Assembly (NCBI GenBank): GCA_038204895.1
Contig: JBBRCL010000006.1
Coordinates: 6,078 to 70,077, forward strand
Length of the DNA: 64,000 nucleotides
Origin: Actinomycetales bacterium
GTDB taxonomy: Bacteria; Actinomycetota; Actinomycetes; Actinomycetales; Cellulomonadaceae
Direction of reading: 5' to 3'
The notes under the pieces were generated by a model. The model was given only the letters and a program-made list of their open reading frames with translations. It had not been told where the DNA came from and made no database searches. A program made the translations under genes and the position numbers. Position 1 is the stretch's first letter, and every line of letters begins with the position of its first letter. Positions 18,250 through 54,671 of this stretch are shown in pieces.

Positions 18250-18321
18250 CCGCCCCCGGCGCTGCGCAGGGCCCCCGTTCGGCAGGTTGCGCTGTGGCAG
18301 ACTGGGCGACGAACGACACGT

Positions 18322-18461
18322 ACGTGCTCCGGGGTCGGTGTAAGTCCGAGCCGGCGGTGACAGTCCGCGACCCGTTCCGATGGACCAGTGGTCCGATCGG
18401 GACGGTTGACCTGGTGGAACTCCAGGACCGACGGTGAAAGCCCGGATGGGAGGAAGCACGT
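18322..18461 (+). ncRNA. FMN riboswitch (RFN element)
   Basis: P1 ACGTGCT/AGCACGT; GGGGTCGGTGTAAGTCCGAGCCGGCGGTGACAGTCCGCGA...GACCTGGTGGAACTCCAGGACCGACGGTGAAAGCCCGGATGGGAGGAA; precedes ribD. Confidence 0.93.
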
Positions 18462-18546
18462 GGCGTCGACCGGCGCATCCGCCGGTCTGCGTCCTGGCGT
18501 CCTGCGACGCCATAGCCCCGGAGCCTGAGCGCTCGGGGAGGGACGG

Positions 18547-33690: not shown

Positions 33691-33748
33691 GGGGCCCGCG
33701 CGCCCGCTAACCGGCACGCTCCGGACAGTGCTGCGCTACGGTCGCACC

Positions 33749-35356
33749 GTGCGGACGGTCTACCGCGACGGTGTGGTGCACGCACGGGTCGACGGTGCGG
33801 CCCAGGCGCTCGTCGTGCTGGACGGACGGATTACCTGGATCGGCCCGGACGACGATGCGCCGACGGATGGCGTCGACGAGGTCGTCCGCCTGGCCGGTGC
33901 CCTGGTCACACCCGGCTTCGTCGACGCGCACGCTCACGTGCTCGAGACGGGGTTCGCGCTCACCGGGGTCGACCTGTCGACGGCACCCTCGTTGGCTGTG
34001 GCGCTGGACGCGGTCGCCCGAGCTGCCCGGCTCGGTCCGGACCCCCTGCTGGGCCATGGTTGGGATGAGACCACCTGGCCGGAGCGGCGTCCTCCCACCC
34101 GCACGGAGCTGGATCGGGCCACCGGCGACGGCGTCGCCTACCTGTCCCGGGCCGACCTGCACTCCGCTGTCGTGTCCACCGCGCTTGCCGACCGCGCGGG
34201 GTGCGCAGAGGCAGCTGGCTGGCGCCCCGACGGGCTGGTGACCGGTGAGGCCCACCACCAGGCTCGCCTCGTCGTGCGGGACGTGGCTCCCCAGCGGCGG
34301 GAGCAGCTGTACCGAACCGCCCTGGCGGCGGCTGCCGCTGCGGGTGTGGTGAGCCTGCACGAGCACAGCGTTCCGTTCCTTGACACCCGTGAGGGCCTGA
34401 ACGAGCTGCTCGCCCTGACGCACGACGCCGCGTCGGGGCTGCCCGGCGTCGTCGGCTACCGGGCTGAGCTCTGCGTGACCGTCGACGACGCGCGGGCCCT
34501 GCTGCGCGCGGTTCCGGGCCTGACCGGGATCGGTGGTGACCTCAACGTCGACGGCTCCCTCGGGTCCCGGACCGCTGCCCTGAGGTTGCCGTACCACGAC
34601 GCCGAGCCGGGCCACCGCGGCAGCCTGTACCTGAGTGCCGAGCAGGTGGCCAACCACGTCACGGCGGTGACCCGCGCGGGCGTGCACGCCGCGTTCCATG
34701 TGATCGGTGACCGGGCGATGGACGAGGTGCTGCTCGGGTTCCAGGCCGCCGGAGATGTCGAGGGCATCACTGCGATCCGGGCGGCCGGGCACCGGCTGGA
34801 GCATGCGGAGATGGTCGACGCCGTGGCCCTCGCCCGGATCCTGCTGTTCGGGCTCACGGTCAGTGCGCAGCCGGCGTTCGACGCCGCGTGGGGCGGCCGG
34901 GACGAGATGTACGCCGGGCGGCTGGGCGCCGTGCGTGCCGCGGACATGAACCCGTTGGCGGACCTGGCCGATGCCGGGGTGCCGCTCGCGTTCGGCTCGG
35001 ACAGCCCGGTGACGCCCATCGACCCCTGGGCCGGCGTGCTGGCGGCAGCCCGGCATCACGAACCGGGCCAGCGGCTCTCGCTCGAGGCGTCCTTCCGTGC
35101 CCACACGGTGGGCGGATGGCGCGCGGCCAACGGGCGGAAGGCGGAGTACGGGGTGCTTCGGGTGGGTGCGCCGGCGTCCTTCGCGGTGTGGCGGGTGTCG
35201 GGGCTGGCCCACGAGGAGCGCACCGGGATGCGGACGTGGCGCGCCGAACCTGCGGCGCCGCCCCTGCCGCTCCCCGAACTGGTCTCGGGGGCATCTGCTC
35301 CGGTCTGCTTGCGCACGGTGCGCGACGGCGTCGTGCTGCACGACCTGCTGGGCTGA
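33749..35356 (+). CDS. Amidohydrolase 3 family protein (YtcJ/Rv2052c-like)
   Basis: PGFVDAHAH, DGSLGSRTA, FHVIGD, RLEHAE, FGSDSP; TACGGT 6 nt before GTG33749. Confidence 0.9.
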   Translation: MRTVYRDGVVHARVDGAAQALVVLDGRITWIGPDDDAPTDGVDEVVRLAGALVTPGFVDAHAHVLETGFALTGVDLSTAPSLAVALDAVARAARLGPDPLLGHGWDETTWPERRPPTRTELDRATGDGVAYLSRADLHSAVVSTALADRAGCAEAAGWRPDGLVTGEAHHQARLVVRDVAPQRREQLYRTALAAAAAAGVVSLHEHSVPFLDTREGLNELLALTHDAASGLPGVVGYRAELCVTVDDARALLRAVPGLTGIGGDLNVDGSLGSRTAALRLPYHDAEPGHRGSLYLSAEQVANHVTAVTRAGVHAAFHVIGDRAMDEVLLGFQAAGDVEGITAIRAAGHRLEHAEMVDAVALARILLFGLTVSAQPAFDAAWGGRDEMYAGRLGAVRAADMNPLADLADAGVPLAFGSDSPVTPIDPWAGVLAAARHHEPGQRLSLEASFRAHTVGGWRAANGRKAEYGVLRVGAPASFAVWRVSGLAHEERTGMRTWRAEPAAPPLPLPELVSGASAPVCLRTVRDGVVLHDLLG

Positions 35357-35467
35357 GCGCTGTCGACGCGACGCGCCGCGCACGACACGCCGCCGACCTG
35401 AGGTCACCCGATCGGAGCACTACCCGCTTGACCTGGGGAGATGGCGCTGACCTGCGGCGACGCCCCC

Positions 35468-35495
35468 TTGACTCACCCGCTGGAGCGGGTAGTTT
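35468..35495 (+). promoter_or_regulatory. Near-consensus sigmaA promoter with palindromic spacer
   Basis: TTGACT-N16-TAGTTT; ACCCGCT-GG-AGCGGGT palindrome (35475-35490). Confidence 0.7.
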
Positions 35496-35510
35496 GCAGG
35501 AGTTCCCTCC

Positions 35511-35675
35511 CGCGGACGCCGCGCCCGAGCTGGTCTCACATCGAGCGCCCCGGACGTGCCTGCGGGGGACACCGGCTGGGCCCGCGCGTTCAGTAGACAA
35601 CGGGCGACGCTCGTTTGACGTCGTCGTCCGGTCCGAAGGACGCGCGGGCCAGTCGGCCGGGCTCCGGCGGTCCCG
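35511..35675 (+). ncRNA. Candidate structured non-coding RNA, family not recognised
   Basis: Manual fold gives a 4-way junction with a 19-bp stem; own promoter; no credible ORF; lnt has a separate -10. Confidence 0.6.
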
Positions 35676-35687
35676 TACCCTTGTCGG

Positions 35688-37247
35688 ATGCCGTTCCACG
35701 CCCCCCGCCGCAGGACGTCGCTGCTGCTGGCGGTCGGGGGAGGGCTCCTCACCGACGCGGGGTTCCCGGGCCTCGGCTGGTGGCCCCTGACCTTCGTCGG
35801 GGTGGCCGCGCTCTTCCTTGCACTCGGCCGCGACAGCGCGCGGTGGAACGCCCTCGTGGGCTTCGTCTTCGGACTCGCGCTCTTCCTGCCGCACATCTCG
35901 TGGGCCGACACCGCCGTCGGGCTGGCACCATGGCTGGCGCTCTCCGTTGCCGAGGCCGGGTTCATGGCGCTGATGGGCGCGGGATGGGCGTGGGCCCGCA
36001 GGGGTGCCGTGATCTGGACGAGTGCCCCGTTGCAGGTGCCGGTCTTCGCGGTGCTCTGGGTCGCGGGGGAGGAGGCGCGCTCGGTTGCTCCCTTCGGTGG
36101 GTTCCCGTGGGCTCGACTCGCCTTCGCCCAAGCCGACTCCCCGCTCGGGTCCTGGGCCTGGGCCGGCGGCGTGCCTCTCGTCTCGATGCTGGTTGCGGTC
36201 GTCGGAGTGCTGCTGGCGCTCGCCGTGATCGCCGTGCGTACCGCCGACATCGCCCAGGTGAGCGCACTGGTGCTGGTGGCCGTCGTCGTGGCTACGTCCG
36301 GGTTGCTGCTGCCGCTGGACACGGCGGCGCAGGCCGGCCGGTTGGTCGTCGGCGCCGTCCAGGGCAACGTGCCCGACCGGGGGCTGGACTCCTTCGACCA
36401 GGCGCGCGAGGTGTTGATGAACCACCTCGCCGGGACATCGGCGTTGCTGAGCCGCGTGCAGCCCGGCGAGCTTGACGTCGTGCTCTGGCCGGAGAACAGC
36501 ACCGACATCGATCCGCGCGCCGACGCCGACGCGGCGGACGCGATCACGGCGGCAGCGCAGGAGGTCGGAGCACCGATCCTGGTCGGAGCCGACAACTACC
36601 CGGCGACCGGGGGTCGGCTGAACACGTCGCTGCTGTGGGACCCGCAGCTCGGCGCGATCGACAGCTACGCCAAGCAGCACCCTGCACCGTTCGGCGAGTA
36701 CATCCCCATGCGCGACATCGCGCGAGCCTTCTCGGACGCGGTCGACCGGGTGCAGACCGACATGGTGCCCGGCACGGAGGCCGGCGTGATCCACCTGCCG
36801 GTCGATCGGCTCGAGCGCATCGTCCCGCTCGGCGTCGGCATCTGCTTCGAGGTGGCCTACGACGACCTGATGCGGAATGCGGTGCAGGCCGGCGCCGAGA
36901 TGATCGTGATCCCCACCAACAACGCGACCTTCGGGCAGACGGACCTCTCCAGCCAGCAGCTGGCCATGTCGCGGATCCGCGCCATCGAGCACGGACGGGC
37001 CACGGTGCAGATCTCGACGGTGGGGGTCAGCGGGGTGATCAGCCCGTCCGGCGTGCTGGTACAGCACACCGGTCACTGGACCGCCGAACAGATGGTCGCG
37101 ACGATCCCACTGCGGACCGAGCTGACGCCCGCCACCCGGTTCGGCGACGCCATCGCCTGGTCGGTTCGTTGCCTTGCCGTCGCGTTCGTCCTCGCCGGGA
37201 TCGGCGGAGCGTTCCGGACCCGGCGCGACGAGCGGATGAAGCCATGA
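35688..37247 (+). CDS. lnt: Apolipoprotein N-acyltransferase
   Basis: PFGGFPW, WPEN, KQHPAPFGEY, ICFEVAYD, PTNNATF; TACCCT 6 nt before ATG. Confidence 0.96.
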   Translation: MPFHAPRRRTSLLLAVGGGLLTDAGFPGLGWWPLTFVGVAALFLALGRDSARWNALVGFVFGLALFLPHISWADTAVGLAPWLALSVAEAGFMALMGAGWAWARRGAVIWTSAPLQVPVFAVLWVAGEEARSVAPFGGFPWARLAFAQADSPLGSWAWAGGVPLVSMLVAVVGVLLALAVIAVRTADIAQVSALVLVAVVVATSGLLLPLDTAAQAGRLVVGAVQGNVPDRGLDSFDQAREVLMNHLAGTSALLSRVQPGELDVVLWPENSTDIDPRADADAADAITAAAQEVGAPILVGADNYPATGGRLNTSLLWDPQLGAIDSYAKQHPAPFGEYIPMRDIARAFSDAVDRVQTDMVPGTEAGVIHLPVDRLERIVPLGVGICFEVAYDDLMRNAVQAGAEMIVIPTNNATFGQTDLSSQQLAMSRIRAIEHGRATVQISTVGVSGVISPSGVLVQHTGHWTAEQMVATIPLRTELTPATRFGDAIAWSVRCLAVAFVLAGIGGAFRTRRDERMKP

Positions 37248-38047
37248 GCGAGCAGCTGGACGCCACTGCCGAGCCGCTCGGTCGAGTGCTGGTCGTCATC
37301 CCCACCTACGACGAGGCGACGACCCTTCCGGGCATCGTCGGGCGGCTCCGGGCCGCCGTACCGGTCGCGGACGTGCTCGTGGTCGATGACGCCAGCCCGG
37401 ACGGCACCGGCCGGATCGCCGACGGCCTGGCCGCGGCGGACGGCGCGGTGCACGTGCTGCACCGGCCAGGCAAGCAGGGCCTCGGTGTCGCCTACGTCGC
37501 GGGGTTCCGGTGGGCCCTCGACCGCGGCTACGACGTGGTCGTGGAGATGGACGCCGACGGATCGCACCAGCCGGAGGAGCTACCTCTGCTGCTCAAGGCC
37601 TTCTCCGGCCCGGGGGCTCCCGACCTGGTGCTCGGCTCCCGGTGGGTGCCCGGCGGTCGGGTGGAGCAGTGGCCCTGGCACCGGGCCCTGCTGTCCAGGG
37701 GCGGCAACACCTACACCCGGCTCGCGATGGGCCTGCCACTTGCCGACGCAACCGGTGGATTTCGGGCATATCGGGCGGGCGCGTTGGCCCAGATGCACCT
37801 GGACGACGTCGCGTCGCACGGCTACTGCTTCCAGGTGGACATGGCCTGGCGCGTGCACCAGGCCGGGGGAGTGATCCGTGAGGTGCCGATCCGGTTCGTC
37901 GAACGGATCGAGGGGCGCTCGAAGATGAGCCGCCGGATCGTCGGCGAGGCGCTCATGCGGGTGACCGTCTGGGGGGTGCAGCGGCGCTGGGCCCAGGTCA
38001 GGGGTGCAGCGGCGCGGCTGACGTCCCGCGCGCTCCGTCGTAGGTGA
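37244..38047 (+). CDS. ppm1: Polyprenol monophosphomannose synthase
   Basis: IPTYDE, VVDDASPDGTG, EMDADGSH, DATGGFRAY, GYCFQVD. Confidence 0.95.
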   Translation: MSEQLDATAEPLGRVLVVIPTYDEATTLPGIVGRLRAAVPVADVLVVDDASPDGTGRIADGLAAADGAVHVLHRPGKQGLGVAYVAGFRWALDRGYDVVVEMDADGSHQPEELPLLLKAFSGPGAPDLVLGSRWVPGGRVEQWPWHRALLSRGGNTYTRLAMGLPLADATGGFRAYRAGALAQMHLDDVASHGYCFQVDMAWRVHQAGGVIREVPIRFVERIEGRSKMSRRIVGEALMRVTVWGVQRRWAQVRGAAARLTSRALRRR

Positions 38048-38392
38048 TCAGGCCGAGCGACGGAGCTTGCCGGCACGCAGCAGCTCCAGGCGCTCGGTGA
38101 GCAGCTCCTCCAGCTCGCCGACGGTGCGACGCTCCAGGAGCATGTCCCAGTGGGTGCGGGGTGACTTCCCGGACTTGGGCTCCGGCCTGTTCGCATCGCG
38201 GAGCAGGGCCTCGGCGCCGCACCGGCACTCCCAGAACACCGGCACGTCCGCCTGGGCGGCGAAGGGCAGCACGATGGTGTGGTCGTTCGGGCAGTCGTAG
38301 TACGCCTCGAAACGCTCGGCGAACTCCACGCCCTCCTCGGACTCCATGCTGTGGGCGCCGATGCGGGTACCCCGCAGTGAGCGGTCTGCCAT
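38048..38392 (-). CDS. rbpA: RNA polymerase-binding protein RbpA
   Basis: MADRSLRG.., WECRCG, RTHWDMLLERR..ELEELLTERLELLR; GGAGG RBS. Confidence 0.96.
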   Translation of the reverse strand: MADRSLRGTRIGAHSMESEEGVEFAERFEAYYDCPNDHTIVLPFAAQADVPVFWECRCGAEALLRDANRPEPKSGKSPRTHWDMLLERRTVGELEELLTERLELLRAGKLRRSA

Positions 38393-38447
38393 GGCGACCT
38401 CCCTTCTGACCGACAGGACTCCCAGGACGGTCTGTCCTTCGTCGTGA

Positions 38448-38474
38448 CAACGCGCAGGCACTCAGTGGTGTTCC
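38448..38474 (-). promoter_or_regulatory. SigR/SigH-type ECF promoter of rbpA
   Basis: GGAAC-N18-GTTG on - strand; rbpA is a known sigmaR target in Streptomyces. Confidence 0.7.
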
Positions 38475-54364: not shown

Positions 54365-54454
54365 GGCACGTCCTCCGGGCAAGTCACCCCGCGGCGTCGG
54401 CCCGTGGCGGTACGGTGATCCGGTCACCCACCGGGTGATGCTCTGAACAGGGCC

Positions 54455-54546
54455 CGCAGCCAGGGGAAGCCGGTCGAAGTCCGGCGCTGACCCGCAACCG
54501 TAGGTCGGACGCTCCCCGCGTCCGACGAGCCGGAGCACCTGCTGCG
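54455..54546 (+). ncRNA. Cobalamin riboswitch, compact form
   Basis: AGGGGAAGCCGGTCGAAGTCCGGCGCTGACCCGCAACCGT, P6 hairpin, GAGCCGGA; P1 CGCAGC/GCTGCG. Confidence 0.9.
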
Positions 54547-54671
54547 AGCCGAGAGGCTCCAACCGTCGAGGCATGCGGGACGGAGCCCGGGTCGTCGCCA
54601 CGACCGTGCGGGCCTCCCGCAGCCGGCGACGGTGCTGGGTCCGGCCACGGACCCCTCAGAAAGAAGCACCG

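Follow-up and report, generated by a model that had tools for sequence, protein, structure and literature searches.

A predicted noncoding RNA family linked to the lnt-ppm1 operon in the class Actinomycetes

INTRODUCTION

The 64,000-nucleotide stretch of Cellulomonadaceae DNA analyzed here (the window) contains a gap of 331 bp (35357 to 35687), the length also given in a preliminary description of this DNA, between an Amidohydro_3 gene (33728 to 35356, plus strand) and lnt (35688 to 37247, plus strand; Pfam LNT_N and CN_hydrolase domains). What does this gap encode, and how is it related to the genes that follow it? The next gene, ppm1 (37244 to 38047, plus strand), is a GT2 gene with a Pfam Glycos_transf_2 domain and forms an operon with lnt (35688 to 38047). 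The rbpA gene (containing PRTHWDMLLERRTVGELEELLTERLELL), already placed about 2.4 kb away in the preliminary description, lies at 38048 to 38461 on the minus strand, convergent with ppm1 and abutting its stop codon. The gene order amidohydrolase, RNA, (lnt), ppm1, and rbpA equals that of SCO1424 to SCO1421 in Streptomyces coelicolor. Lnt carries out lipoprotein N-acylation, and Ppm1 synthesizes a mannose donor that is used for protein O-mannosylation and, in some actinobacteria, for lipomannan and LAM as well. To our knowledge, essentially nothing is known of the regulation of the lnt-ppm1 operon.

Our analysis indicates that the gap very probably encodes a genuine plus-strand noncoding RNA of about 160 to 170 nucleotides (nt), which is predicted to start near 35502 from its own sigmaA promoter and to fold into two hairpins, P1 followed by P2. 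With the same high confidence, the RNA belongs to a previously uncatalogued family confined to the class Actinomycetes.

RESULTS AND DISCUSSION

Promoters of the RNA and of lnt

The promoter TTGACT-N16-TAGTTT that had been proposed for the gap was found on the plus strand. It is of the sigmaA type, with the -35 element at 35468 to 35473, a 16-nt spacer, and the -10 element at 35490 to 35495, and its position predicts an RNA start at about 35501 to 35503. The promoter is kept as CTTGAC-N16/17-TAKKTT in all 30 same-genus loci and takes the form TTGACA-N17/18-TAGGTT in other families and in Streptomyces. An E. coli-style promoter scan overlooks it because its -10 element is of the actinobacterial TAnnnT type. 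The spacer (35474 to 35489) is a small palindrome, CACCCGCTGGAGCGGG, which is loosely conserved in the genus; on the minus strand, this palindrome gives rise to the one weak Rfam match of the gap (an rsmX terminator-like stem, E = 1).

A second promoter element lies between the RNA and lnt (35676 to 35690, plus strand), where the -10 element TACCCT (35676 to 35681) stands 6 nt upstream of the leaderless ATG at 35688. Conservation of this element as TAnnnT-N6-7-GTG throughout the genus bears out the earlier proposal that lnt has a leaderless promoter of its own. The corresponding sequence is ACGTATCCTGC-N5-GTG in other families, and in other orders, the -10 element of lnt or ppm1 is TTGATAnCGT, GGTAGCGT, or TAGGCT. 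A -10-like element was found just upstream of lnt or ppm1 in every lineage, and these genes are mostly leaderless.

Differential RNA sequencing of S. coelicolor (Jeong et al. 2016, PMC4895711, supplementary file 2) reported two transcription start sites (TSSs) for SCO1423/ppm1 (1518492 to 1519400, minus strand). The primary TSS is at 1519424, 24 nt upstream of the gene, and the secondary TSS is at 1519787, 387 nt upstream, with a low TSS count (3 versus 11). The RNA start predicted for five Streptomyces loci, 7 nt past TAGGTT, lies 387 to 442 nt upstream of the ppm1 start. The 387-nt TSS thus matches the predicted RNA start, by geometry and not base for base.

The RNA promoter is preceded by two TGACCTG(S)G direct repeats (35429 to 35437 and 35448 to 35456, plus strand), which are conserved in the genus and the order, are spaced 19 to 21 bp apart, and are in phase with the TGAC of the -35 element. 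The TGACCTGCG half-sites, located directly upstream of the -35 element, are conserved across orders (loci L210 to L215 and L033 to L060). Actinotalea and Cellulomonas have them as direct repeats with a spacing of about 20 bp, and other families and Streptomyces have them inverted (TGACCTGCGG..CCGCAGGTCA). In the Streptomyces version, the sites read CTGACCTGCG..CGCAGGTCG and stand immediately upstream of TTGACA. The module consisting of direct or inverted TGACCTGCG sites, TTGACA, N17/18, and TAGGTT is therefore kept from Actinotalea to Streptomyces. Since the arrangement switches between direct and inverted, the TGACCTGCG sites are better regarded as DNA sites than as part of an RNA, and they look like the operator of a transcription factor. 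No known operator matched them, and string searches of the literature returned only unrelated matches.

A direct pair of the form TGACCTG-N11-12-TGACCTG is also present upstream of a leaderless PPK2-like gene (MAGATEHDD..FEGRDAAGKG), and copies of the direct pair in the same genome are located at C29:18838-18862 (minus strand), C66:13611-13946, and C67:2845-2869. The pair occurs three to four times, together with GTAAC iterons, beside a serine-recombinase gene on a 14-kb contig, which may be a prophage or an integrative element. Further upstream in the gap, GACRCGCC repeats (GACGCGCC at 35370 to 35377 and GACACGCC at 35384 to 35391, plus strand) constitute a possible protein-binding DNA site. 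One or two such CGACACGCC repeats follow directly past the stop codon of the upstream gene in most loci of the genus and of the order, and thus in many families, including loci with a different upstream gene. They include GACAC, which we take to be the WhiA core motif.

Structure and covariation of the predicted RNA

Positions 35500 to 35690 fold at -103.5 kcal/mol on the plus strand (z = -2.18), and the minus strand gives a z score of -1.18. The predicted fold consists of two adjacent hairpins, P1 and P2. The region has a G+C content of about 72%, at which any sequence folds well, and its shuffled versions average -93 kcal/mol against the -103.5 kcal/mol observed. Good folding at this G+C content would fit a nonfunctional origin of the structure, whether by GC-driven chance folding, as a DNA-level element (an operator or a cruciform), or as the remnant of a mobile repeat. 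The z scores of the two strands point to more than chance folding on the plus strand.

P1 is a 5' hairpin of variable length (35503 to 35571, plus strand), the base of which pairs UUCCCUCCCGC (35503 to 35513) with GCGGGGGA (35562 to 35569). A hairpin of 27 to 93 nt is folded at this place in every species, with an unconserved interior and a conserved base (UCCUCC with GGAGGR), and columns 9 to 16 of alignment A1 are mostly paired with columns 95 to 101. On the MAFFT alignment, P1 covaries little, which also favors a nonfunctional reading, with 70% of cells paired versus 69% in shuffles; P1 is therefore moderately supported. This single hairpin contains both the D-arm-like arm and the CCCCG/CGGGG arm that the preliminary description had drawn as separate elements of a cloverleaf. 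The closing stem of that cloverleaf (35514-35527/35658-35673) pairs at chance level, in 42.0% of cells versus 41.3% in shuffles, and ARAGORN detected no tRNA or tmRNA gene in 35300 to 35800. On these grounds, and since the conserved architecture is one of two adjacent hairpins, the cloverleaf or tRNA-mimic reading was abandoned.

P2 is a long hairpin that forms the conserved core of the family (35572 to 35660, plus strand), defined by the RNAalifold consensus and by covariation; on the MAFFT alignment of the genus, RNAalifold retains P2 alone. According to its dot-bracket structure, P2 comprises a lower helix (35572-35577/35655-35660), a main helix of 13 bp (35579-35591/35638-35650), and an upper helix (35601-35609/35622-35630) followed by a variable apex. 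Within the genus, 93.5% of cells pair versus 89.3% in shuffles and 31 to 41% in slid controls. The main helix pairs in 100% of cells in the genus, with four positions changed on both sides, and its variants are GCGCG/CGCGC, GCGUG/CACGC, and GCAUG/CAUGC. At the base of P2, CGGCU (35573 to 35577) pairs with GGCCG (35655 to 35659), or CGGCU with GGYCG genus-wide, leaving AGUC bulged. This register is preferred because it accounts for changes from U-G to U-A that are left unexplained by the register CCGGCU/AGUCGG. The long arm proposed earlier therefore stands as the hairpin at 35572 to 35660 with its AGUA/GAA loop, and its base pairs better in a register other than the one first drawn.

Class-wide, 94.1% of cells in P2 pair versus 76.4% in shuffles, and 19 of the 27 pairs are compensatory on an alignment fitted to the model. 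An independent MAFFT-only alignment of 22 loci gives 14 compensatory pairs out of 27. P2 thus covaries strongly. The length of the apex varies while the stems are preserved. P2 is also strongly asymmetric between strands: R1, a covariance model of P2 (with rough E values), scores 101.5 bits on the plus strand of the window and 28.7 bits on the minus strand, and the helix contains G-U pairs on the plus strand. Across loci, the reverse strand scores about 28 bits versus 58 to 101 bits for the forward strand. An RNA on the minus strand, or the terminator of a minus-strand gene, was rejected on the basis of these scores, the plus-strand G-U pairs, and the plus-strand orientation of the flanking genes. 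A small open reading frame (35441 to 35596) was also rejected, since it starts upstream of the -35 element and since P1 and the apex vary in length by non-multiples of 3.

Chance folding is excluded by the covariation, the strand asymmetry, and the mapped S. coelicolor TSS. A nonfunctional origin in any of its forms is highly improbable, given that 14 to 19 of the 27 P2 pairs are compensatory, that G-U pairs and a 70-bit asymmetry distinguish the strands, that the stems are kept despite an apex of variable length, that a TSS is mapped in S. coelicolor, and that the single copy per genome is not what a repeat would show. The earlier claim of an unrecognized RNA with its own promoter, apart from that of the leaderless lnt, is upheld by conservation, covariation, strand asymmetry, and the S. 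coelicolor TSS.

The conserved internal loop of P2

The main and upper helices of P2 are separated by an internal loop, with AGUAGACAA as its 5' strand (35592..35600, plus strand) and GUCCGAA as its 3' strand (35631..35637, plus strand). UAGAnAACG on the 5' side is invariant in 34 loci from several families. On the 3' side, GG(N)(N)CGAAGG is nearly invariant, and its CGAAGG part is fully so. In 22 loci from other orders, the loop strand AGUAGACAACG shows no variation; both AGUAGACAACG and CGGUCCGAAGG are invariant away from the neighborhood of the window, and across most of the class, AGUAGACAACG/CGGUCCGAAGG hardly varies. The first two residues of the loop vary in several families near the window (ACUA, CAUA, UAUA, and AACA). 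Positions 30, 81, and 82 of alignment A2 vary without covariation, and the GAC/GUC mini-helix that the minimum free energy fold places inside the loop was rejected because its variant positions fail to covary. An invariant loop within a covarying helix looks like a specific binding site.

The loop had been likened to a bulged-G (sarcin-ricin/loop E, S-turn) motif, the textbook consensus of which we take to be C-AGUA-G over C-GAA-G with flanking Watson-Crick pairs. The P2 loop of the window and of most of the class reads C-AGUA-G over C-GAA-G, and the flanking pairs C23-G87 and G28-C83 (A2 numbering) are invariant. AGUA opposite GAA is present in the window and in 22/22 loci from other orders. 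However, the G is replaced in several related families, both it and its 5' neighbor varying near the window, and the loop contains extra invariant residues (A-N-AA over G-N-N) that do not belong to the module. The likeness thus fits most of the class, with a variable G in several families close to the window, and the bulged-G reading is no more than plausible because the first two loop residues vary in neighboring families.

Conservation and distribution of the RNA family

A DNA search detected the gap in 34 of the 36 other species of the genus at 70 to 88% identity, and the two misses are genomes that are 62% and 82% complete. The flanking proteins of these loci are only 47 to 72% identical, so that the conservation of the gap goes beyond chance. 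From 5' to 3', the conserved blocks in the genus are the GACACGCC repeats, the two TGACCTGCG repeats, CTTGAC-N16/17-TAKKTT, UUCCUCCCCGCGG, a variable hairpin, CGGRGGRCACCGGCUGGGCCCGCGYGUUCAGUAGACAACGG, the variable apex, CGUCCGGUCCGAAGGACRCGCGGGCCAGUCGGYCGG, a variable spacer, and TAnnnT-N6-7-GTG.

The family was defined by R1 as a P2 hairpin with the UAGAnAACG/CGAAGG loop that occurs once per genome, immediately before lnt or ppm1 and in their orientation; the window, with 101.5 bits and its linkage to lnt, belongs to it. Within the order, R1 matched 92 of 401 genomes and 43 of 118 genera, nearly always in single copy. Within the class, it matched 187 of 401 genomes and 98 of 175 genera, nearly all with one copy of 97 to 102 nt, and no match was obtained among about 270 genomes of the other classes of the phylum. 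Named matches include Cellulomonas, Oerskovia, Cellulosimicrobium, Georgenia, Ruania, Sanguibacter, Luteimicrobium, and Flavimobilis. The occurrence of one copy per genome led us to reject a repeat or mobile element. In two other families, the promoter architecture is retained and P2 has diverged, so that R1 overlooks it.

In most lineages, the RNA is 230 to 300 nt long, with a larger 5' domain, a G-rich linker, and an NGCCR pentaloop on P2. The second structured domain lies 35 to 45 nt upstream of P2. Its outer helix covaries (GACUGG/CCAGUC, CACUGG/CCAGUG, and GGCUGG/CCAGCC), its inner hairpin has the loop GUGCACCCGC, an invariant CCAGGU lies about 55 nt upstream of P2 at the junction, and a GCACC/GGUGC pseudoknot is possible. 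Actinotalea and its close relatives, including Cellulomonas, have neither the 5' domain nor the conserved pentaloop, and this joint absence is the pattern that would be expected if the two interact. The RNA of Actinotalea, the genus of the window, is a reduced form within a family that spans the class and accompanies the lnt-ppm1 operon.

Linkage to the lnt-ppm1 operon

In every locus for which downstream DNA was available (more than 100), lnt-ppm1, or ppm1 alone, lies directly downstream of the RNA on the same strand. This was the case for lnt in 30/30 genus loci and in 30/30 of the best order-level loci, where an amidohydrolase gene lies upstream solely in the family of the window. At the class level, lnt is downstream in 26 of the 28 best loci, and the other two, which are the shortest, have no match inside the available DNA. 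Orientation was determined for 25 loci, in all of which lnt and the RNA share a strand, with candidate starts about 10 to 120 nt past P2 in most of them, and in 20 more loci from lower-scoring families, the next gene or genes are lnt-ppm1, lnt, or ppm1. Since ppm1 itself is the next gene where lnt is absent, namely, in five of six Streptomyces loci and in one other family (L225), the partner of the RNA is the ppm operon and not lnt as such.

Some genera that keep the operon have lost the RNA, including two of the window's own family and genus g164 of family f70. In RNA-less genera (L250, L251, and L258 to L260), the stop codon of the amidohydrolase gene abuts or overlaps the lnt start, which indicates that the RNA and its promoter form one module, there or missing as a whole between genes whose synteny is otherwise kept. 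The retention of lnt-ppm1 in several genera without the RNA indicates that the RNA is dispensable. As a side observation, two genomes of another order carry a c-di-GMP-II-GAG riboswitch (RF03169, 47 to 48 bits; L181:2594-2723 and L185:2636-2765, both on the minus strand) about 1 kb upstream of the lnt-associated RNA and on the same strand.

Possible modes of action

A terminator scan of 35200 to 35900 detected no intrinsic terminator. P2 is followed by AAAACACG in a relative with 55% GC and by UCUACCUGG in one with 63% GC, and the lack of a U-tract past P2 even at these GC contents makes read-through into the next promoter plausible. Intrinsic termination, whether for the amidohydrolase gene or for the RNA itself, was rejected as a reading of the element because there is no U-tract and because the element persists where the upstream gene differs. 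Streptomyces loci often have an extra GC hairpin past P2 that is terminator-like. A Rho-type C-rich tract past P2 was likewise not adopted, as the C>G bias is mild and not decisive (0.386 versus 0.345, in 51 of 79 loci).

The best explanation overall, to which we assign a probability of about 0.45, is a regulatory RNA that is linked in cis to the ppm operon and binds a factor. The promoter, the fold, the linkage, and the arrangement of the promoters in tandem are shown. How such a cis-linked transcript would work is slightly less certain, as its binding partner, its 3' end, and its effect on lnt-ppm1 are inferred. A transcription factor at the TGACCTGCG sites would set the firing rate of the upstream promoter. 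The nascent RNA would then fold, and its P2 loop, which is invariant and resembles an S-turn module flanked by conserved purines, may bind a protein or a small molecule. Depending on this binding, the polymerase would either halt or be released where P2 ends or continue across the closely following leaderless lnt or ppm1 promoter. A polymerase that runs on may occlude that promoter or give a long-leader transcript, which would be poorly translated for want of a Shine-Dalgarno sequence. In leaderless lineages, the read-through transcript has no Shine-Dalgarno sequence before lnt, and a cis effect would for this reason be one of interference and not of classical attenuation. No computational result obtained here indicates a ligand or a protein partner. 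A more specific and rather speculative version is a class-wide regulatory RNA of actinobacterial envelope biogenesis, not described before, in which the P2 loop, joined in most lineages by a 5' domain containing a pseudoknot, would recognize a metabolite or protein that reports lipoprotein acylation or the supply of polyprenol-phosphate-mannose, and which would act by a new mechanism, the controlled run-on into a leaderless promoter instead of by attenuation or masking of a Shine-Dalgarno sequence.

The same layout could belong to a free-standing, stable trans-acting RNA that ends at or after P2 and serves envelope or lipoprotein functions by sequestering a protein, as a scaffold, or as a base-pairing small RNA. 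Its place beside lnt-ppm1 would then reflect no more than regulation in common or an old synteny, comparable to the pairings of 6S RNA with ygfA and of tmRNA with smpB. A strong -35/-10 promoter of its own with a candidate upstream operator, a mostly leaderless downstream gene with its own promoter, and a single copy per genome speak for this alternative. Like stable RNAs, the RNA has a paired 5' end and a long GC hairpin at its 3' end, followed in Streptomyces by the extra terminator-like hairpin, and the invariant internal loop suggests a protein site. However, its position and orientation are fixed throughout the class, even where the upstream gene has changed or lnt is missing, which is unusual for trans-acting small RNAs; moreover, the RNA has no conserved single-stranded seed, and lower-GC relatives have no canonical terminator. 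We consider a free-standing RNA a serious competitor and less probable than the cis-linked regulatory RNA.

A metabolite riboswitch of the ppm operon, responding to GDP-mannose, a nucleotide second messenger, or another envelope precursor, would be a special case of cis regulation. Its aptamer would consist of the 5' domain, the P2 loop, and the P2 pentaloop, with the Actinotalea form being degenerate or minimal. The multi-helix 5' domain of most lineages, with its covarying outer helix, invariant CCAGGU, and possible GCACC/GGUGC pseudoknot, is in keeping with an aptamer, as are the NGCCR pentaloop, the strict association with one biosynthetic operon, and the existence of an unrelated Lnt RNA motif (RF01711) upstream of lnt in Chlorobi. 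We nevertheless regard a riboswitch as unlikely, because the genes that it would regulate have their own promoters downstream of the RNA, because there is no recognizable expression platform in the form of a terminator or a helix sequestering a Shine-Dalgarno sequence, and because the 5' domain and pentaloop of the putative aptamer are dispensable in Actinotalea and Cellulomonas.

A single-copy RNA with a promoter of its own under operator control, occurring in about half of the sampled Actinomycetes, with Streptomyces, Cellulomonas, and many other genera among them, would join the widely distributed bacterial RNAs, and its linkage to the lnt-ppm1 operon looks invariable. Through the RNA, envelope regulation becomes directly accessible to experiment in the genetically tractable model S. 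coelicolor, where ppm1 phenotypes, namely, phiC31 resistance and antibiotic hypersensitivity, are easily scored (PMC5882110). The tandem layout, in which a leaderless promoter comes after a structured RNA, poses a question of mechanism that lies outside current riboswitch and attenuator models.

Comparison with known RNA families

Rfam 15 (4,227 models) was searched at the gathering threshold and at an E value of ≤10. At the gathering threshold, nothing was detected in the lnt gap, and the sole matches in the window are an FMN riboswitch (85.7 bits, 18320 to 18463) and a cobalamin riboswitch (32.4 bits, barely over the cutoff, 54440 to 54560), both outside the gap. At an E value of ≤10, positions 35300 to 35800 yielded only rsmX noise on the minus strand (16.4 bits versus a gathering score of 56), and the homologous loci of other orders and Streptomyces had no match at an E value of ≤1. 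In agreement with the preliminary description, the RNA therefore matches no family, including tRNA, SRP, tmRNA, Ms1-type, and 6C RNAs. Membership in a known Rfam family (Lnt RF01711, SRP, 6S, 6C, Ms1-type, or raiA) was rejected for the lack of matches in the window and its relatives. Our literature searches found no RNA upstream of lnt or ppm1 in actinobacteria, an earlier description in a small-RNA catalogue being possible.

SRP RNA was considered because the R1 matches are single-copy hairpins of about 100 nt. P2 shares with SRP RNA (RF00169) this size and copy number and the conservation of its internal loops, and its string GGUCCGAAGG recalls what we take to be GGUCCGGAAGG in SRP helix 8. 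In P2, however, this string sits on the 3' strand of an internal loop and not around a tetraloop, and the RF00169 model does not match P2. The only RF00169 match in the genome (C89:1308-1404, 61.1 bits, against the 40 bits required for this family) is on another contig and represents the true SRP RNA.

The Lnt RNA motif (RF01711), located upstream of lnt, was reported from Chlorobi only (Weinberg et al. 2010, PMC2864571). Its covariance model had no match in the window (E ≤ 10) or in the relatives (E ≤ 1). Both are structured RNAs directly upstream of an apolipoprotein N-acyltransferase gene that are presumed to be cis-regulatory and have no known ligand. The actinobacterial RNA differs in having its own promoter and then a second promoter and in staying with ppm1 where lnt is absent.

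The raiA and yjdF motifs, which are orphan structured RNAs each associated with one class of genes, and put of HK022 and EAR, which act in cis by modifying the polymerase, have no sequence or model similarity to the RNA in the Rfam searches. The put RNAs are two adjacent hairpins with conserved internal loops. In all of these systems, as in the RNA described here, a conserved multi-helix RNA, whose sequence does not betray its function, lies between a promoter and a specific operon. The difference is that the operon here has its own promoter past the RNA and is a two-gene operon without an evident antitermination target.
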